DNA of 48,813 bases, taken from the IMG/VR virus record IMGVR_UViG_2718218305_000005, positions 1 through 48,813 of that record; one strand, given 5' to 3'. Shown here piece by piece: positions 3,408-8,785 of the stretch (the stretch's first letter is position 1; each line of letters begins with the position of its first letter). The notes below the pieces were generated by a model. The model was not told the origin of the DNA, did not search any database, and saw nothing but the letters and a program-made list of their open reading frames with translations. Source of the DNA: a virus. Taxonomy: Duplodnaviria; Heunggongvirae; Uroviricota; Caudoviricetes. The position numbers and the translations under genes were made by a program.

Positions 3408-6000
3408 TTGCATACTCCTTAGCCCAGCGGGGCAGTGATAACGTTTTAATAGCTGGCCATTCATCGGTATTCAGGCAGTCAGCCAGGGTCCTCAGATTGC
3501 GGTGATATTCCTGCTGGCCTGCCAGTTTTGCTTCTTCGCCCATCATGAAAATCTCAACCGGGTAACGTCCGCATTCAACAGTTGTGCTGGCAACCAGAAA
3601 AACGAAAGTTGGCAGCACGCCAAACTGTGCTTCATAACCGTCACTGTAGAATGCATCCTGAACGTGATAGCGGTAGTCGTAATAAGCCGTTTTGAATCGT
3701 TGAATATCCGCTGTGGTTTTCACGTCCATGATCCAGTGAAATTCAGGAATAATTTTGTCCGGACGGCACCGACACAAAATTCCTGTTTCAGGATCTTCCC
3801 AGTAAATTGATGATTCAGCGTGTCCGGCGCTTTCAACAAGCCATTGACCCAGCGGCAAAGCCATAACGCTCTGATACATGAGTTCAATTTTCCGGCCTTC
3901 TTCGGCAGTGATAACCGTTTTTCCTGTGCTTGCGCATTCCATCAGAAACGCTTTCTCCTCTTCTTTTCCGGCGGTTGTACGGCGGTTAAATTCAGGTGCC
4001 ACGATAAAGCGGTTACTGAATTCTTCCGGTTCAAGTACACGGCAGTGGAAAGCGGTTCCTAAATCGAGCGTTTTTGTCTTTGTGGTGTCCACTGGGGCAT
4101 TTTTACGCCACAAATACAGAGCCGGAGTATCAGCAATGTCGTCGAGCTGAGACTTACTGACACCGGGACCCGCGTGGTAATTCTCATTCGAAATTCCGTA
4201 ATAAATACCAGGCTCTATGTCTCCTGCGATTACGGGATCTGCGACTTCGCCAGTTTCATCATTGCAATCGCGATGCGGATCGCTGCCAGCATTCTCATTG
4301 TGCGGATGTTCAGCGCCTTCCATTTCCTCCGGATCATTTTCCTTAGCTTCAACCTGACTCTCTTCATCGAATGTTTCCTGGTATGTTGCGTCGCCCATCA
4401 CCGCACCACAGTCAGGGCAGTTATCCCCGCCAGTCTGGCCGCAGGCATTGCAGGCTATTTCCGGTTCCTGTTGCACTACTGGCTCAGGTTGATTCATATC
4501 TGGGCTGGTTTTTTCCGTTTCTGGCTGGTTCTGGTACACACAATCGCGAGTCTGGATCCCCTTTACCCATTTCGGATCGTTCGGGTCGCTAATTCCGTCA
4601 ACAAATTCACCACGTGATGCAGCAAGCAATTTATCGGCATCGACAGGATTTTTTGATGGAATGTTTTTCCGGGCTTCATGGAGTTCTGCCCGCAGTTCCT
4701 GATATTTCGCATCAACAGAATTTACCTGTGACTGAGCATCCAGCGGCTGCGTGTCCTGATGATGTTCAGTTGCGTCCGGTTCCATTGTTTCAGCCTCTCC
4801 CTGTTCAACTGCCGTTGTTCCAGATGGTTGCGGTTTTTCTTCATCATCCTGTTTTCCTTCTTCTGTTACTCGCTGCGGCATCGGGGCAGAGGAGCGACCG
4901 CAGGCAATATCCACGATTTCCGGATCAGGGTTGGCATGATCGGTTTCAGTCAGTACTTTGTTCAGATATTCAGTGACGTGCGCGGGGATGACCTCGATCC
5001 CAATTGGTGCTTCTTTTACGGACGCAACCACGATGGCGCGGGAATAATCCAGCCCGCCAGGCATGGTGATGAATTTGTCGCGGAAAACAGAAAAGGGCGG
5101 TTTATTTTCAGCGATAATTTCCTCAATGCGTTTAGCGTGTGCCGGATGAAGGTTATAGATGTCCAGATCCATTGAACGGGCCAGTACGCCAGTGGCTACG
5201 TCGCGCGCCAGTGACGTCAGATCGTGTACGAAACCTTCGCCGCGATCGGTGAGGTTTCCGCCGCCAGCATTAGCACCGGAAGCCGTGCGAGTGATGTGTG
5301 AAACACGATTACCCTTCATCCACTCTTTTGTCAGCAGTCCTCGATCGGTGTAGTCAGCGTTCAGGTATGCTTCGAAAAAAGCAGTTATCAGTCCCAGGTT
5401 TGAATTACCAGGATTAGGGAAAACTTTGTCAGTGTCACGAACCAGTTTGTGGAGTTCGCGAATTTCCAGCGGGTCGAGCAGGCTGGTTTTGTGGGAAACA
5501 GCCAGGGCAGTAACAGCCGGTAGTTCTTCAGCCCGAGCAATGTGTAATGCCTGGAGTCCGTCGCGTGAAACGTGCGTTACCGGTTTTTCGCTGCCGTGTT
5601 GAGCAAGCCAACGAATGGGCAGTTCCTGGCCAGAAATTGGGAGTAGCATATTCTCCTCAATCTCAGTCATGTCTTCGCCGTTGACGTTGGTATTGCCTTG
5701 ATAATGAGCGTTGTCTGGTGCTGCTCCCGGTTTTAGTTCCCATGTCATGGAGTCTTTGCTGAGTTGATAGCGTTCACTCCAGGTAAAATCGATCTCACCT
5801 TCAGCGGGCAGGTCATTAACGACAGGAAAATTCGTGGCAACAGCTTTAAAATAGCTGCTCAGTTTTTTACCTGACTTAACGATCAGGTAGTCCAGAGTGG
5901 CACAGGTCGATTCAAAATCGTTGCTTGCCCACAGGACGACGTCAGGTTCACCGGATGATTTTTTCGCTTTCCGTAACAGGAAGAGTGGTTTTGTGCTCAT
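3400..6000 (-). CDS. recE: Exodeoxyribonuclease VIII RecE
   Basis: 866-aa ORF matching recalled Rac RecE in length and sequence; upstream of and overlapping recT. Confidence 0.95.
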
Positions 6001-6101
6001 TGTTTTTTAACCTCAACTCAGATTAAAATTCGTTTTGTTCAGTGAATGATCTTGCCGGATACACACTGTTCATAGCCTGCGCCATACGCAGGCTATTTCT
6101 T

Positions 6102-6377
6102 TCAGATTTCACCTTTTAATTTCATTGCAATTAGAGTTGCCAGAAATTCGGCTTTTTTTTCTGCGGGCAGATTCTTTCCGATATGCACCAGGCACATTTT
6201 TTTGACACCTTCATCAAGTGTTTTTACGTTGCCTGATGGACCATCGATATCAACCACAGTGAATGGGGTTTCTTTATTTTCTGTTTTAATTACGTAGCCA
6301 ATGCGCTTTCCTTCCAGATTCACCTCGTGAACAATGTCATCGGTAGTTACAACAGTGGCTTCATAATTGGTAATCAT
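6102..6377 (-). CDS. racC: RacC-like protein
   Basis: 91-aa ORF (MITNYEATVVTTDDIVHEV...) matching recalled Rac RacC. Confidence 0.8.
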   Translation of the reverse strand: MITNYEATVVTTDDIVHEVNLEGKRIGYVIKTENKETPFTVVDIDGPSGNVKTLDEGVKKMCLVHIGKNLPAEKKAEFLATLIAMKLKGEI

Positions 6378-6451
6378 GTTTTTCTCCTTAATTAAGGTTG
6401 AGCGAATACCTGCCATTTCTGGCATAAATTCAGTTTCGAATAGTCAATTAA

Positions 6452-6622
6452 TTAAAGTTCATGTGCCATCTGGTCTTTTTCGGCACAAGCTTCACTGCAA
6501 TATTTTCTCGGTTCGTCTTTTGATAAAATCCCGTGCATGAAGTGAAGCATTCTTTCAATAGCTTTGCTTTCTTCAACGTCTTTTTTGCAAAGGTGGTAAG
6601 CACATTTTATTTTCTTAGTCAT
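6452..6622 (-). CDS. ydaE: YdaE-like small zinc-binding protein
   Basis: 56-aa [59 protein letters not shown] read from the minus strand (below the ORF-track length cutoff). Confidence 0.7.
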   Translation of the reverse strand: MTKKIKCAYHLCKKDVEESKAIERMLHFMHGILSKDEPRKYCSEACAEKDQMAHEL

Positions 6623-6843
6623 CACCATGACTCCGCCTTTACAGGTAAACCATCACGACCGAGGAAGACTTTAATCATGCGGTCAGTAATGCATGTTTTT
6701 GTGGTCAGGTTACGAATATATAGTTTTCGCTTTTTAATATTGTTTGCCGAGGCAATATATGTCCGGCCTTCATGAAGAACATAATCGCCAGGAGTCACAC
6801 ACTGACGTGGTATTTCATCAGTTCCGAAGTGATGTGCAATCAT
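6622..6843 (-). CDS. kilR: KilR-like cell-division inhibitor
   Basis: 73-aa [25 protein letters not shown]... matching recalled Rac KilR; Rac gene order. Confidence 0.8.
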
Positions 6844-7250
6844 AATTATCTCCATTTTTACAAATGAACTTTGTTGATGCGGTGCCTGGTGCCTCCAGGT
6901 GACTGCAACCAGTTAACAATTACAGTCGGCTTTCCCACCCAAACCAATAAGGACTAACATGACTTTTAACTGTGCCACGTGCGCTTAGCCGCATTCACCG
7001 CATCACAAAATTCACTTTAAAAAGGGCGGACATCAGCCGAACTTCAAGAAAAAAACTGATGCCGCCAGGACTACACACAGCAATGTCGTTATTTACAACC
7101 GGAGGCGCACTCCCACCATTTAAATTTAACAGACAAGACCGACTCTTTATGGATATCGGAAATGCGCCTTCGTGTTGTGCGCCTGTCTTTTTACCACTTC
7201 AGGCTCGGTGGTATACTGGAGTTCTCACACAACCAGTAAGGAGAATAATT

Positions 7251-7430
7251 GTGCTATCCAATATGAATGAAATTGATTCGTTAGTTTTTGAATATTTGCG
7301 ACTTAAGCACCCCAAAGGCTGGGATTGCAGTGAAGCCGATTTTATTTCAGAAGTTCAACGCCTGAGAGCGGAGTTTACCGAGCTTCTTAACCCGCCTCAG
7401 CGTGATATCCCCCCTGGGTTTATTGGTTAA
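7251..7430 (+). CDS. Hypothetical small protein (in the position sieB occupies in Rac)
   Basis: 59-aa ORF with GTG start 5 nt after AAGGAGA; ends PPGFIG; no membrane segments, so not SieB. Confidence 0.3.
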   Translation: MLSNMNEIDSLVFEYLRLKHPKGWDCSEADFISEVQRLRAEFTELLNPPQRDIPPGFIG

Positions 7431-7791
7431 TCGCTAGAGTAATCATTGATTTGATACTGGCAACGGCTGCTGCGCTTGCCGTTGCCACAGCATTTTCAAC
7501 AAACTCTTTATCTTTGCCTTTTAATGTTAGTTCTTCTATTATCCGGCAAAATGTAGGTTGATATTTTTCCAGAACAAAGTAAGCAAATTCTCTGTTAACG
7601 CTGTGCCCATAAACAATAATATTTTTATCTGTTTGCTTTGTATTTGTATCATATGCAGAATGTAGACTTTTATTAGCCATAATAATTCGTTCTTCAGTGC
7701 CTGCATTTGGTTCCAGCTGCTGGAGGCGCTTTGCATCCTCCAGAAGCAGAGCGATAACGTGTTTTAATTCTGTCTCGTTCATTTTACTCAC
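7420..7791 (-). CDS. Hypothetical 123-aa protein (unknown function)
   Basis: ORF in the leftward early operon between ydaF-like and kilR; no recognisable motif. Confidence 0.5.
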   Translation of the reverse strand: MSKMNETELKHVIALLLEDAKRLQQLEPNAGTEERIIMANKSLHSAYDTNTKQTDKNIIVYGHSVNREFAYFVLEKYQPTFCRIIEELTLKGKDKEFVENAVATASAAAVASIKSMITLAINQ

Positions 7792-7939
7792 CTGAATGTC
7801 TTCCCAACCAACGACGTGCGCCTGTTTCAGTTTTAAATGTTTTGCTTTTGGTATACGTCATGGCGGTGAACGTTCCATCCTGGTTGGGGAACACGCCACA
7901 CACTAGGGATTCGTTGTTGCCGAGGTCGATTTTTTGCAT
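7784..7939 (-). CDS. YdaF-like small protein
   Basis: 51-aa ORF MQKIDLGNNESLVCGVFPNQDGTFTAMTYTKSKTFKTETGARRWLGRHSGE; Rac-like position. Confidence 0.5.
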   Translation of the reverse strand: MQKIDLGNNESLVCGVFPNQDGTFTAMTYTKSKTFKTETGARRWLGRHSGE

Positions 7940-7949
7940 TTTGCGAATC

Positions 7950-8084
7950 TCACATCTTGTTGCTGCATATAGCGGCTTCTGCCTGCCAGAGATCCCAGTC
8001 GTTGCTGCGTAGAGCCTGTACAGCTTGGCTGTAAGTGATACCGCAACAATCCATCAAATACTGAACTACTTCGTAATGCACCAT
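7950..8084 (-). CDS. YdaG-like small protein
   Basis: 44-aa ORF MVHYEVVQYLMDCCGITYSQAVQALRSNDWDLWQAEAAICSNKM; Rac-like position next to the repressor. Confidence 0.5.
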   Translation of the reverse strand: MVHYEVVQYLMDCCGITYSQAVQALRSNDWDLWQAEAAICSNKM

Positions 8085-8320
8085 TTTATCTCTCCCTTTA
8101 ACGCCGGGTGGCGGAACTAAAACCTACAGCGCCGTGCTGCTTCTGTAATAATATTAGTTATGTTCATATTAATGATCAACACAAATATGCATTTCGTTGA
8201 TAAAAATGTACTATCCTAATGAAATTTTTAGTGTTTTTTTTGATAAAAAGTAAGGCGGGGGCGGGCGGAGGGGACAAAAAAACCGCCAAAAATGGCGGTT
8301 TAGTTACGAGATGGTGGGAG

Positions 8321-8785
8321 CTATTTCTTCATGCGTTTTTGAGCTGCCAGCATATTTTCAAATGCTTCTTTGTAGAGTTCATTCTGACCTTTAAGTCTTT
8401 CGATTAGTTTTGCTTTTTCTGATTCGGGAAGGATATCAAAAAGATCTAGTAAATCAGCTTGTTGCTTGTTAACCATCCGCCAACCTTCGCCTTCGAAACT
8501 TTCGTCATAAGTTCCTGAGGAACGGACGTAATTCATCAGATCAGCTAAATCAGGCCTCAACTCTTCAGGCTTAACTCTTAGTAATACAGCGAATTTTAAT
8601 GCCGCATCAGTATTAAGTGGAGCCTTTCCGTTGAGATAATGGCTAACCGCAGATTGCGCCTCAAAACCCATTAGCTCGGCAGCAAGCTCCTGAGTCAGTT
8701 TGAGCTCTCTTTTTTTTGCATCCCAGATTGCGCGCAGACGTTGCGTAGCTTCCGGCGATGCGATTTCTTCGCGTTTTCTTCTCAT
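8321..8785 (-). CDS. racR: Prophage repressor, RacR-like (HTH, no peptidase domain)
   Basis: 154-aa ORF with XRE-type HTH (TQELAAELMGFEAQSAVSHYLNG) and coiled C-terminus; divergent from a Cro-like gene. Confidence 0.8.
   Translation of the reverse strand: MRRKREEIASPEATQRLRAIWDAKKRELKLTQELAAELMGFEAQSAVSHYLNGKAPLNTDAALKFAVLLRVKPEELRPDLADLMNYVRSSGTYDESFEGEGWRMVNKQQADLLDLFDILPESEKAKLIERLKGQNELYKEAFENMLAAQKRMKK

Follow-up and report, generated by a model that had tools for sequence, protein, structure and literature searches.

What occupies the place of the superinfection-exclusion gene sieB in a Rac-like prophage, and do the genes found there belong together? The question is raised by a Caudoviricetes sequence of 48,813 nucleotides (nt) from IMG/VR (record IMGVR_UViG_2718218305_000005, positions 1 to 48,813), which is referred to below as the window. 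The original prediction, made from the letters alone, had placed two unknown open reading frames (ORFs) in the sieB slot of a Rac-like early-left operon. We confirm that both, gene X (orf120; 7420..7782, minus strand; 120 amino acids (aa)) and gene Y (orf59; 7251..7430, plus strand; 59 aa, acidic), are real protein-coding genes under purifying selection. Comparison of related loci further indicates that they form a conserved, co-inherited convergent pair and are not two unrelated unknowns. The reading of their function that we favour, with a probability of roughly 0.4, is that Y has an exclusion or abortive-infection-type role with self-immunity, X being its cognate partner in the lytic state.

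The cassette in the place of sieB

The left arm of the window prophage reads integrase, xis, lar, recT, recE, a racC-like gene, ydaE, kilR, the cassette, ydaF, a ydaG-like gene and an HTH_3 repressor gene. The identities of these genes are confirmed by the annotation that the Prokaryotic Genome Annotation Pipeline (PGAP) provides for near-identical Escherichia coli loci (recE, racC-like gene, ydaE, kilR, a 59-aa hypothetical protein, ydaF, helix-turn-helix (HTH) repressor) and for the Rac prophage of strain K-12 (kilR, sieB, ydaF, a 44-aa gene, racR), so that the Rac-like gene order put forward originally holds. In blastn alignments, the window is 98.9% identical to K-12 over positions 6000-7212 and 94.1% identical over 7800-8120. 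Given the break of homology at 7212 and its resumption at 7800, the 587 base pairs (bp) in between (7213..7799; no strand assigned) stand in for the 569-bp segment of K-12 Rac that holds sieB, which bears out the suspected replacement. Few genomes have this arrangement: of the 5,426 complete E. coli genomes, just 6 contain 80% or more of the region 6900-8100, whereas the flanks match in 4,401. As had also been anticipated, neither product is SieB-like or of membrane type. K-12 SieB matches the Pfam SieB profile with an E-value of 1.5e-31 and has a hydrophobic stretch with a KD19 of 2.19; neither X nor Y matches the SieB profile (PF14163) in Pfam at E<=1, and their maximal KD19 values are 1.49 for the 120-aa X and 0.21 for the 59-aa Y.

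Both ORFs are present where they had been placed (7420-7791 and 7251-7430, each from a GTG), with one correction. X almost certainly starts at the ATG at 7782 and has 120 rather than 123 aa, because this codon lies 1 base past the stop codon of ydaF (TAAAATG), is preceded by GGTGAG and is the position at which the database homologues start. Since its start adjoins the stop of ydaF (7784..7939, minus strand; DUF1391, Pfam E-value 2.4e-28, also annotated by PGAP), which lies directly upstream, X is the third cistron of a ydaG-ydaF-X early-left operon. The notion that both ORFs occupy the sieB slot thus applies to Y, which has the position and orientation of sieB, and has to be amended for X, which lies within the early-left operon, downstream of ydaF. 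The 3′ ends of the two genes overlap by 11 nt (7420..7430; no strand), both stop codons included. Y starts with a GTG 7 nt past the Shine-Dalgarno sequence AAGGAG, and its homologues begin at an equal offset from the promoter island described below, with TTG or GTG.

Among the Escherichia, Salmonella and Enterobacter copies, both genes combine a high proportion of synonymous differences (pS 0.6-0.8) with a low proportion of nonsynonymous ones (pN 0.2-0.3), the ratio of nonsynonymous to synonymous rates (dN/dS) being about 0.1-0.3 overall and about 0.2 for X; for Y the range is 0.09-0.29. The homologues of X (P0001, P0003-P0015) include full-length ones in Salmonella (62% identity) and in Enterobacter (56-59%), with more distant ones at 46-47%. 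These data bear directly on the current annotation of the locus, in which PGAP/RefSeq marks just the first 40 codons of X, as an incomplete pseudogene "missing C-terminus" (H1 and H3; L001 4763-4882 and L003 4699-4818, equivalent to 7663-7782 of the window). Taken at face value, this annotation would make the long ORF a gene remnant or an artefact, that is, a pseudogene fragment devoid of its C-terminus. The explanation is refuted by the full 120-codon frame, intact in all E. coli copies, and by the full-length Salmonella and Enterobacter homologues with their dN/dS of about 0.2, and we give it next to no weight. The pseudogene call itself stems from the fact that relatives of X are abundant for its N-terminal part alone. 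Y is called a hypothetical protein by PGAP in H1 and H3, and its homologues in the Enterobacter loci L006 and L007 were left uncalled by gene callers and were found by tblastn. Even if the defence reading developed below should prove wrong, a systematic mis-annotation is corrected here, with intact X having been taken for a pseudogene and Y having been missed in Enterobacter.

Architecture and pairing of X and Y

Sequence and profile comparisons indicate that X is a fusion of a widespread early-left N-terminal module (N-module; aa 1-45, 7648..7782, minus strand) with a separate C-terminal module (C-module; aa about 52-120, 7423..7629, minus strand). In the AlphaFold model of X (AF2; predicted local distance difference test score (pLDDT) 75.8), the N-module, which carries the motif LKHVIALLLEDAKRLQQLEPNAGTE, forms a helical hairpin and is joined by a flexible linker to the C-module, a beta-hairpin with two long helices. 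Residues 1-47 alone match PHROGs 30817, 12693, 2982 and 32391, all of unassigned function (E-values from 6.6e-20 to 5.6e-12), the rest of the protein having no significant match. In a profile search of 1.8 billion representatives, the N-module was found in more than 100 proteins with many different C-termini, encoded always just downstream of a prophage repressor and upstream of kil, as in Shigella phage 75/02 Stx, Cronobacter phiES15 and Aeromonas pAEv1818. Constraint on this module acts at the protein level (pN 0.08-0.23 versus pS 0.43-0.83); its conservation as a DNA or RNA element was considered and is ruled out by the divergence of the synonymous sites. A second recurrent N-terminal module, M(E/K)(F/M)(K/Q)(D/E)LPxxVQxIAAQ..., was seen in genes at the position of X in five loci (L084, L093, L077, L098 and L013) and, in abundant E. 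coli proteins of 133 aa (P0061, P0089), is fused upstream of a LKHVIALLLEDA module.

The direct hmmscan match of X to phrog_23495 is weak (E 0.14). A profile built from full-length X homologues finds the stand-alone protein P0187 in the whole library of 1.8 billion proteins (E 7.6e-8), and P0187 in turn matches phrog_23495 at 2e-47; because the X-homologue profile retrieves a member of this family, the C-module can be placed in PHROG 23495. Stand-alone versions of the C-module in this family measure 72-128 aa. Another protein used as a query, P0131, had no match in IMG/VR.

The association of the C-module with a Y-family ORF is constant. Among the loci collected through the promoter island, those with a C-module have a convergent, overlapping Y-family ORF in 39 of 39 cases, which represent 21 distinct pairs, with or without the N-module. 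The same holds for 6 of the 6 loci collected independently via stand-alone C-module proteins, and tblastn located a convergent overlapping Y homologue beside each of the full-length X homologues from Salmonella, Enterobacter and more distant sources. The divergent X homologues L125 and L126 are likewise accompanied by a convergent, overlapping Y relative. The genes of such C-module/YdiH-like pairs overlap by 9-74 nt. Pairs occur in Escherichia, Salmonella, Enterobacter and Klebsiella-type sequences, with identities of just 20-30%, and among the intact loci examined that have a C-module none is without a Y relative. Three genomic contexts were found for the pairs: some follow a DicA/RacR-type repressor, others an S24 cI-type repressor, and still others lie between tail-tube and tail-chaperone genes. 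The last context is that of four loci from an unrelated phage type (L118-L121, at about 2500-2950), in which the pair sits between the genes for the tail tube (PF11681) and the tail assembly chaperone (PF21822), downstream of a DUF3383 gene. X shares its strand with the neighbouring phage genes, early-left or tail, in each of the contexts examined, and Y runs antisense to them. The recurrence in several contexts implies that the X-Y pair moves as a unit, and the association appears to exceed what linkage in a single slot would lead one to expect.

As for Y itself, its AF2 model (pLDDT 84) consists of two helices (residues 7-19 and 28-46) and a disordered tail, for which a structure search found no analogue. 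A profile of Y homologues retrieves 45 small proteins, mostly from Klebsiella, Raoultella, Citrobacter and Escherichia. Two Y relatives score above the gathering threshold of PF15930 (YdiH; 27 bits), namely L125-Y (29.5 bits) and L123-Y (27.7 bits); L125-Y is 44% identical to orf59 (pairwise E 1e-11) and 41% identical to YdiH of K-12 (E 1e-11). Orf59 has no PF15930 match of its own and no direct alignment with YdiH, so that Y is at best a remote, divergent member of the YdiH family, connected to it by transitive homology only. The two proteins are alike in size (59 aa for Y, 62 aa for K-12 YdiH), the helices being predicted for orf59 only. YdiH is an orphan chromosomal protein for which a low-confidence guess of a link to oxidative stress has been published (PMC12356324). 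The K-12 locus, menI-ydiH-sufA (L127 1886-2164), has the same GGTGGTATACT extended -10 upstream of ydiH as is present at Y, and it has neither the stem B described below nor a convergent partner. The comparison suggests that the chromosomal ydiH is a domesticated copy. Overall, the remote-homology and structure searches, to which the original prediction had looked for an answer, gave family links for the modules of X and for Y, and no informative fold match.

The promoter island and the hypervariable slot

Directly upstream of Y lies a promoter/leader island (7173..7243, plus strand), in which a promoter scan recognises, by motif only, a -35 element (TTTACC, 7190-7195), a 16-nt spacer, an extended -10 element (TGgTATACT, 7209-7217), a GGAG discriminator, a CA-rich leader and the Shine-Dalgarno sequence (7238-7243). 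Over about 65 nt (7173-7242), identity stays at 90-99% even between loci whose flanks can no longer be aligned, and the right edge of the island is sharp, falling at 7239-7242, just inside the Shine-Dalgarno sequence. The exact 20-mer TGGAGTTCTCACACNACCAG is present in 106 IMG/VR stretches and in 83 of the 5,426 E. coli genomes, in which it is never annotated, and the island does not change with the type of repressor that a prophage encodes. Judged by these motifs, the promoter of Y lies on the strand opposite the early-left operon, and Y would thus have a promoter of its own, as is expected of a moron.

The island also contains an inverted repeat, stem B (7214..7238; no strand), made up of TACTGG (7214-7219) and CCAGTA (7233-7238) around the invariant 13-nt loop AGTTCTCACACAA. 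Across the alignment, 98% of the cells are paired, three of the six pairs show compensatory changes, and covariation is 0.174, versus 0.081 in shuffles (0/500). Diverged loci retain the design of -10, stem, CA-rich loop, stem and Shine-Dalgarno sequence, for example upstream of the Y genes of L118, L121 and L122. Because the 5′ arm of stem B lies inside the -10 element, the stem is not in the Y mRNA and could serve only in the antisense (early-left) RNA or as a symmetric DNA site; a function on both strands would explain the extreme conservation of the island. A second repeat, stem A (7193..7212; no strand), pairs ACCAC with GTGGT in the promoter spacer. It is paired in 87% of cells, with weaker support than stem B, and is found upstream of K-12 sieB as well.

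These features invite an explanation at the RNA level, in which the island promoter, firing into the early-left operon, would generate antisense RNA and interference, that is, an excludon. It would damp ydaG-ydaF-X and, by collision, kil/recET in lysogens, the island would in addition be an RNA element of the early-left transcript, and the ORFs would be secondary passengers. The island is indeed far more conserved than any cargo, stem B with its compensatory changes could form as RNA only in the antisense transcript, no canonical intrinsic terminator was found 3′ of Y, and an RNA-seq study of K-12 counts sieB-ydaF among the convergent transcript overlaps, or excludons (PMC12288877). X and Y share with such excludons the convergent genes, the overlapping 3′ ends and a predicted mutually exclusive expression, with the differences that the overlap of X and Y is that of their ORFs (11 nt) and that they are also a conserved protein pair. 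An RNA function would, however, account for the slot and not for the cassette: selection acts at the protein level on both ORFs and on their pairing, and the island is not predicted to fold with unusual energy (z -0.4 to -0.7). We therefore hold an RNA regulator with passenger ORFs to be quite improbable.

Behind the island, at least 15 unrelated families of small ORFs (59-148 aa) were encountered (loci L012-L117), many of them with a type-specific convergent partner of their own that overlaps by 4-74 nt. They include several zinc-ribbon proteins and a "ARVELYNAEPEDY" family of roughly 95 aa. For ten other cargo types, the only Pfam matches were to zinc ribbons and below gathering thresholds, and PADLOC returned nothing significant (best PDC-M14A, E 1e-4, and NsnC, E 0.021). 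Of the 111 loci with room for it, 75 have a kil homologue on the left, and 66 loci have a repressor on the right; the far boundary of the variable region falls at one of three points, namely about codon 30 of the N-module, the 3′ end of ydaF or the start of ydaG. By this comparison, Rac/Qin-type (DicA-like) lambdoid prophages have a hypervariable slot that is flanked by the repressor-proximal early-left genes on one side and by the dicF/kil region on the other, and the cassette at 7213-7799 appears to be one accessory two-gene unit within it.

A slot of this kind could also house two independent accessory genes, Y as a stand-alone moron and X as an early anti-defence or host-modulating protein at a position comparable to that of lambda Ral, linked by their overlap and by shared recombination anchors. 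The variable region is in fact bounded by sharp conserved anchors (the island edge at 7239-7242 on one side and the N-module, the end of ydaF or the start of ydaG on the other), the N-module has recombined with many C-termini, one type of Y (cluster 7) occurs with several different types of X, and YdiH stands alone in the chromosome. We nonetheless find independence doubtful, given that the pairing of the C-module with Y outlasts divergence to about 20-30% identity and is kept in the tail operon, which lacks the early-left anchors, and that X and Y are separated in none of the intact loci examined.

Possible function and known systems compared

In the favoured reading, Y, like sieB, would most likely be produced constitutively in the lysogen, because it is preceded by a near-consensus extended -10 sigma-70 promoter of its own, which is the same in prophages with unrelated repressors. 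X would be made only on induction or infection, because its translation is coupled to that of ydaF within the early-left operon, which the repressor controls. Since kilR and recET lie beyond Y, the early-left transcript should cross Y and its promoter head-on, in antisense. Y would have a host- or phage-directed function in the lysogen, most likely exclusion, an abortive-infection-type response or another role of benefit to the lysogen. In the prophage's own lytic programme, convergent transcription and antisense RNA would suppress the expression of Y, and the C-module of X would probably bind Y as its cognate partner, which would give self-immunity. The two expression states, the contact between the proteins and any anti-phage effect are what we infer from sequence, and a conflict function is preferred because of the position (sieB in K-12, the ral/sieB part in lambda), the hypervariability of the slot and the small size of its proteins. 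In lambda, ral and sieB are located in the corresponding early-left part. Hypervariability of this kind, here with at least 15 unrelated cargo families at one site, usually marks conflict genes, and the slot looks like a good place for new genes of phage-bacterium conflict.

Database searches have not named a function for either protein. Scans of X and Y against Pfam, PHROGs, NCBIfam and PADLOC gave no functional family, no component of PADLOC-DB 2.0 was matched at E<=10, sequence and profile searches of PDB with X and Y returned nothing meaningful, and tblastn against 50,697 phage records yielded matches to the N-module of X only and none to Y. Several points speak against the proposed role. 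No homology of X or Y to known defence, exclusion or toxin-antitoxin proteins was found, and structure searches with X returned generic helical hairpins only. The GTG or TTG start of Y suggests modest translation. Some cargo types of the slot have no convergent partner, and YdiH has no X beside it, so that Y-type proteins are able to work without X. Finally, the association of X and Y could in part be plain linkage of physically overlapping genes.

The constant pairing and the predicted opposite expression states of X and Y would also fit a reversal of roles, akin to a toxin-antitoxin safety catch, with X as a host-directed, possibly toxic early takeover protein and the constitutive Y as an antidote against leaky early-left expression of X in lysogens; cognate specificity between X and Y would then drive their co-variation. 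Y is acidic and tiny, as many antitoxins and inhibitors are, and the early-left operons of Rac and Qin hold the toxic kilR, dicB and dicF under layered control (PMC10448788, PMC5069750). Yet the convergent layout is unlike that of a type II toxin-antitoxin operon, no toxin-antitoxin family was detected in Pfam, NCBIfam or PADLOC, and X has no toxin-like fold or motif in Pfam and structure searches. Moreover, chromosomal YdiH exists without X, and other cargo ORFs behind the island lack any partner, which leaves this reversal of roles an unlikely explanation.

The closest functional analogue of the X-Y pair would be SieB/Esc. Y shares with sieB of Rac its position, its orientation, its convergence with ydaF and the possession of its own promoter. 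SieB, as known from P22, lambda and K-12 Rac, is a membrane-associated protein of about 160 aa, whereas Y is a 59-aa, predicted soluble two-helix protein without sequence or fold similarity to it. In P22, Ranade and Poteete reportedly described in 1993 an exclusion factor expressed by the lysogen, an escape factor made by the phage and antisense control by sas RNA. Esc is an in-frame product of sieB, whereas the putative escape partner of Y is a separate convergent gene and not the product of an internal start.

The Qin dicBF operon (ydfA-ydfB-ydfC-dicF-dicB), which is repressed by DicA (PMC5069750, PMC10448788), has a backbone in common with the window locus, consisting of a repressor, a DUF1391 gene (ydfA or ydaF), small genes, a long "untranslated" stretch with a DicF-type RNA and a division inhibitor, and X takes the place of ydfC. 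Unlike the window prophage, K-12 Qin has neither the island nor a convergent Y. The ydfC gene of Qin was compared with X as a candidate homologue and is unrelated. In the P2/P4 hotspots (PMC9122126), as here, a fixed prophage position with conserved anchors receives many unrelated cargo genes, and in BstA/aba (bioRxiv 10.1101/2020.07.13.199331) a prophage spares itself from its own defence, the same idea as that proposed for X and Y. What sets the slot apart from both is that its cargo is very small (59-148 aa), that none of it is recognised by PADLOC, that a single near-invariant promoter/leader serves it, and that many of its members come as convergent overlapping pairs. Variable accessory or defence slots in prophages are already known (PMC9122126); the literature searches turned up no account of the present slot, of the promoter island common to its members or of the convergent cognate pairs.

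A far-reaching extension of the favoured reading can be envisaged, although we think it improbable as a whole. Enterobacterial lambdoid prophages would possess, in the island-anchored slot, a general plug-in site for the expression of cognate pairs, each composed of a lysogen effector and a lytic neutraliser; the pairs would make up a hitherto unrecognised class of miniature exclusion or abortive-infection systems with self-immunity. In this class the pair of X C-module and YdiH-like protein would be the most widespread, ydiH would be a domesticated effector, and the island would act on both strands, as a promoter and as a structured lytic RNA. If the favoured reading holds, one 20-nt anchor leads directly to no fewer than 15 families of very small prophage proteins, none of them characterised, which sit where lambdoid phages keep exclusion and anti-restriction genes and are too small for defence-island methods. 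It would also offer a starting point for the function of the orphan E. coli gene ydiH and of two PHROG families that have none assigned, and would add a case of a prophage that couples effector and antidote via convergent transcription. The interest of the finding depends on experimental proof of function.

The surroundings of the cassette add several observations. At the position of RacR, the window encodes an HTH_3 prophage repressor of another immunity type (8321..8785, minus strand), with a clear intrinsic terminator directly 3′ of its gene (8301-8280, minus strand), and the first gene of the early-left operon is the ydaG-like one (7950..8084, minus strand), which encodes a 44-aa protein with a UBA-like domain. 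The early-left promoter is presumably inside the 235-bp spacer between repressor and ydaG (8085-8320), to judge from the layout. Two TTGATAAAA(A) repeats at 8197 and 8240, the sole repeated motif of this spacer, may be operators; as an operator that also acts on the promoter of Y, TTGATAAAA was rejected, the motif being absent there and not enriched in the window. On the other side, downstream of the cassette on the early-left strand, lies kilR (6622..6855, minus strand; ORF list and PGAP). Between the island and kilR there is a DicF-like RNA (7024..7079, minus strand), which matches Rfam RF00039 at 39.1 bits (E 2e-6), below the gathering score of 48. Pairing of DicF or of this DicF-like RNA with the leader of Y was considered and dismissed, as complementarity judged by eye amounts to just 4-5 bp. 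An STnc100-like stretch (6836-7022, minus strand; 35.5 bits, below the threshold of 47) is also situated between the cassette and kilR, and the layout of the two parallels ydfABC-dicF-dicB of Qin. The whole DicF-like/STnc100-like stretch is 98.9% identical in K-12 Rac, where it carries no PGAP annotation. Finally, in E. coli strain 61_150228 (L003 3021-3872), a gene for a Rha-family regulator has been added between kilR and the island region, an instance of the mosaicism of this arm.

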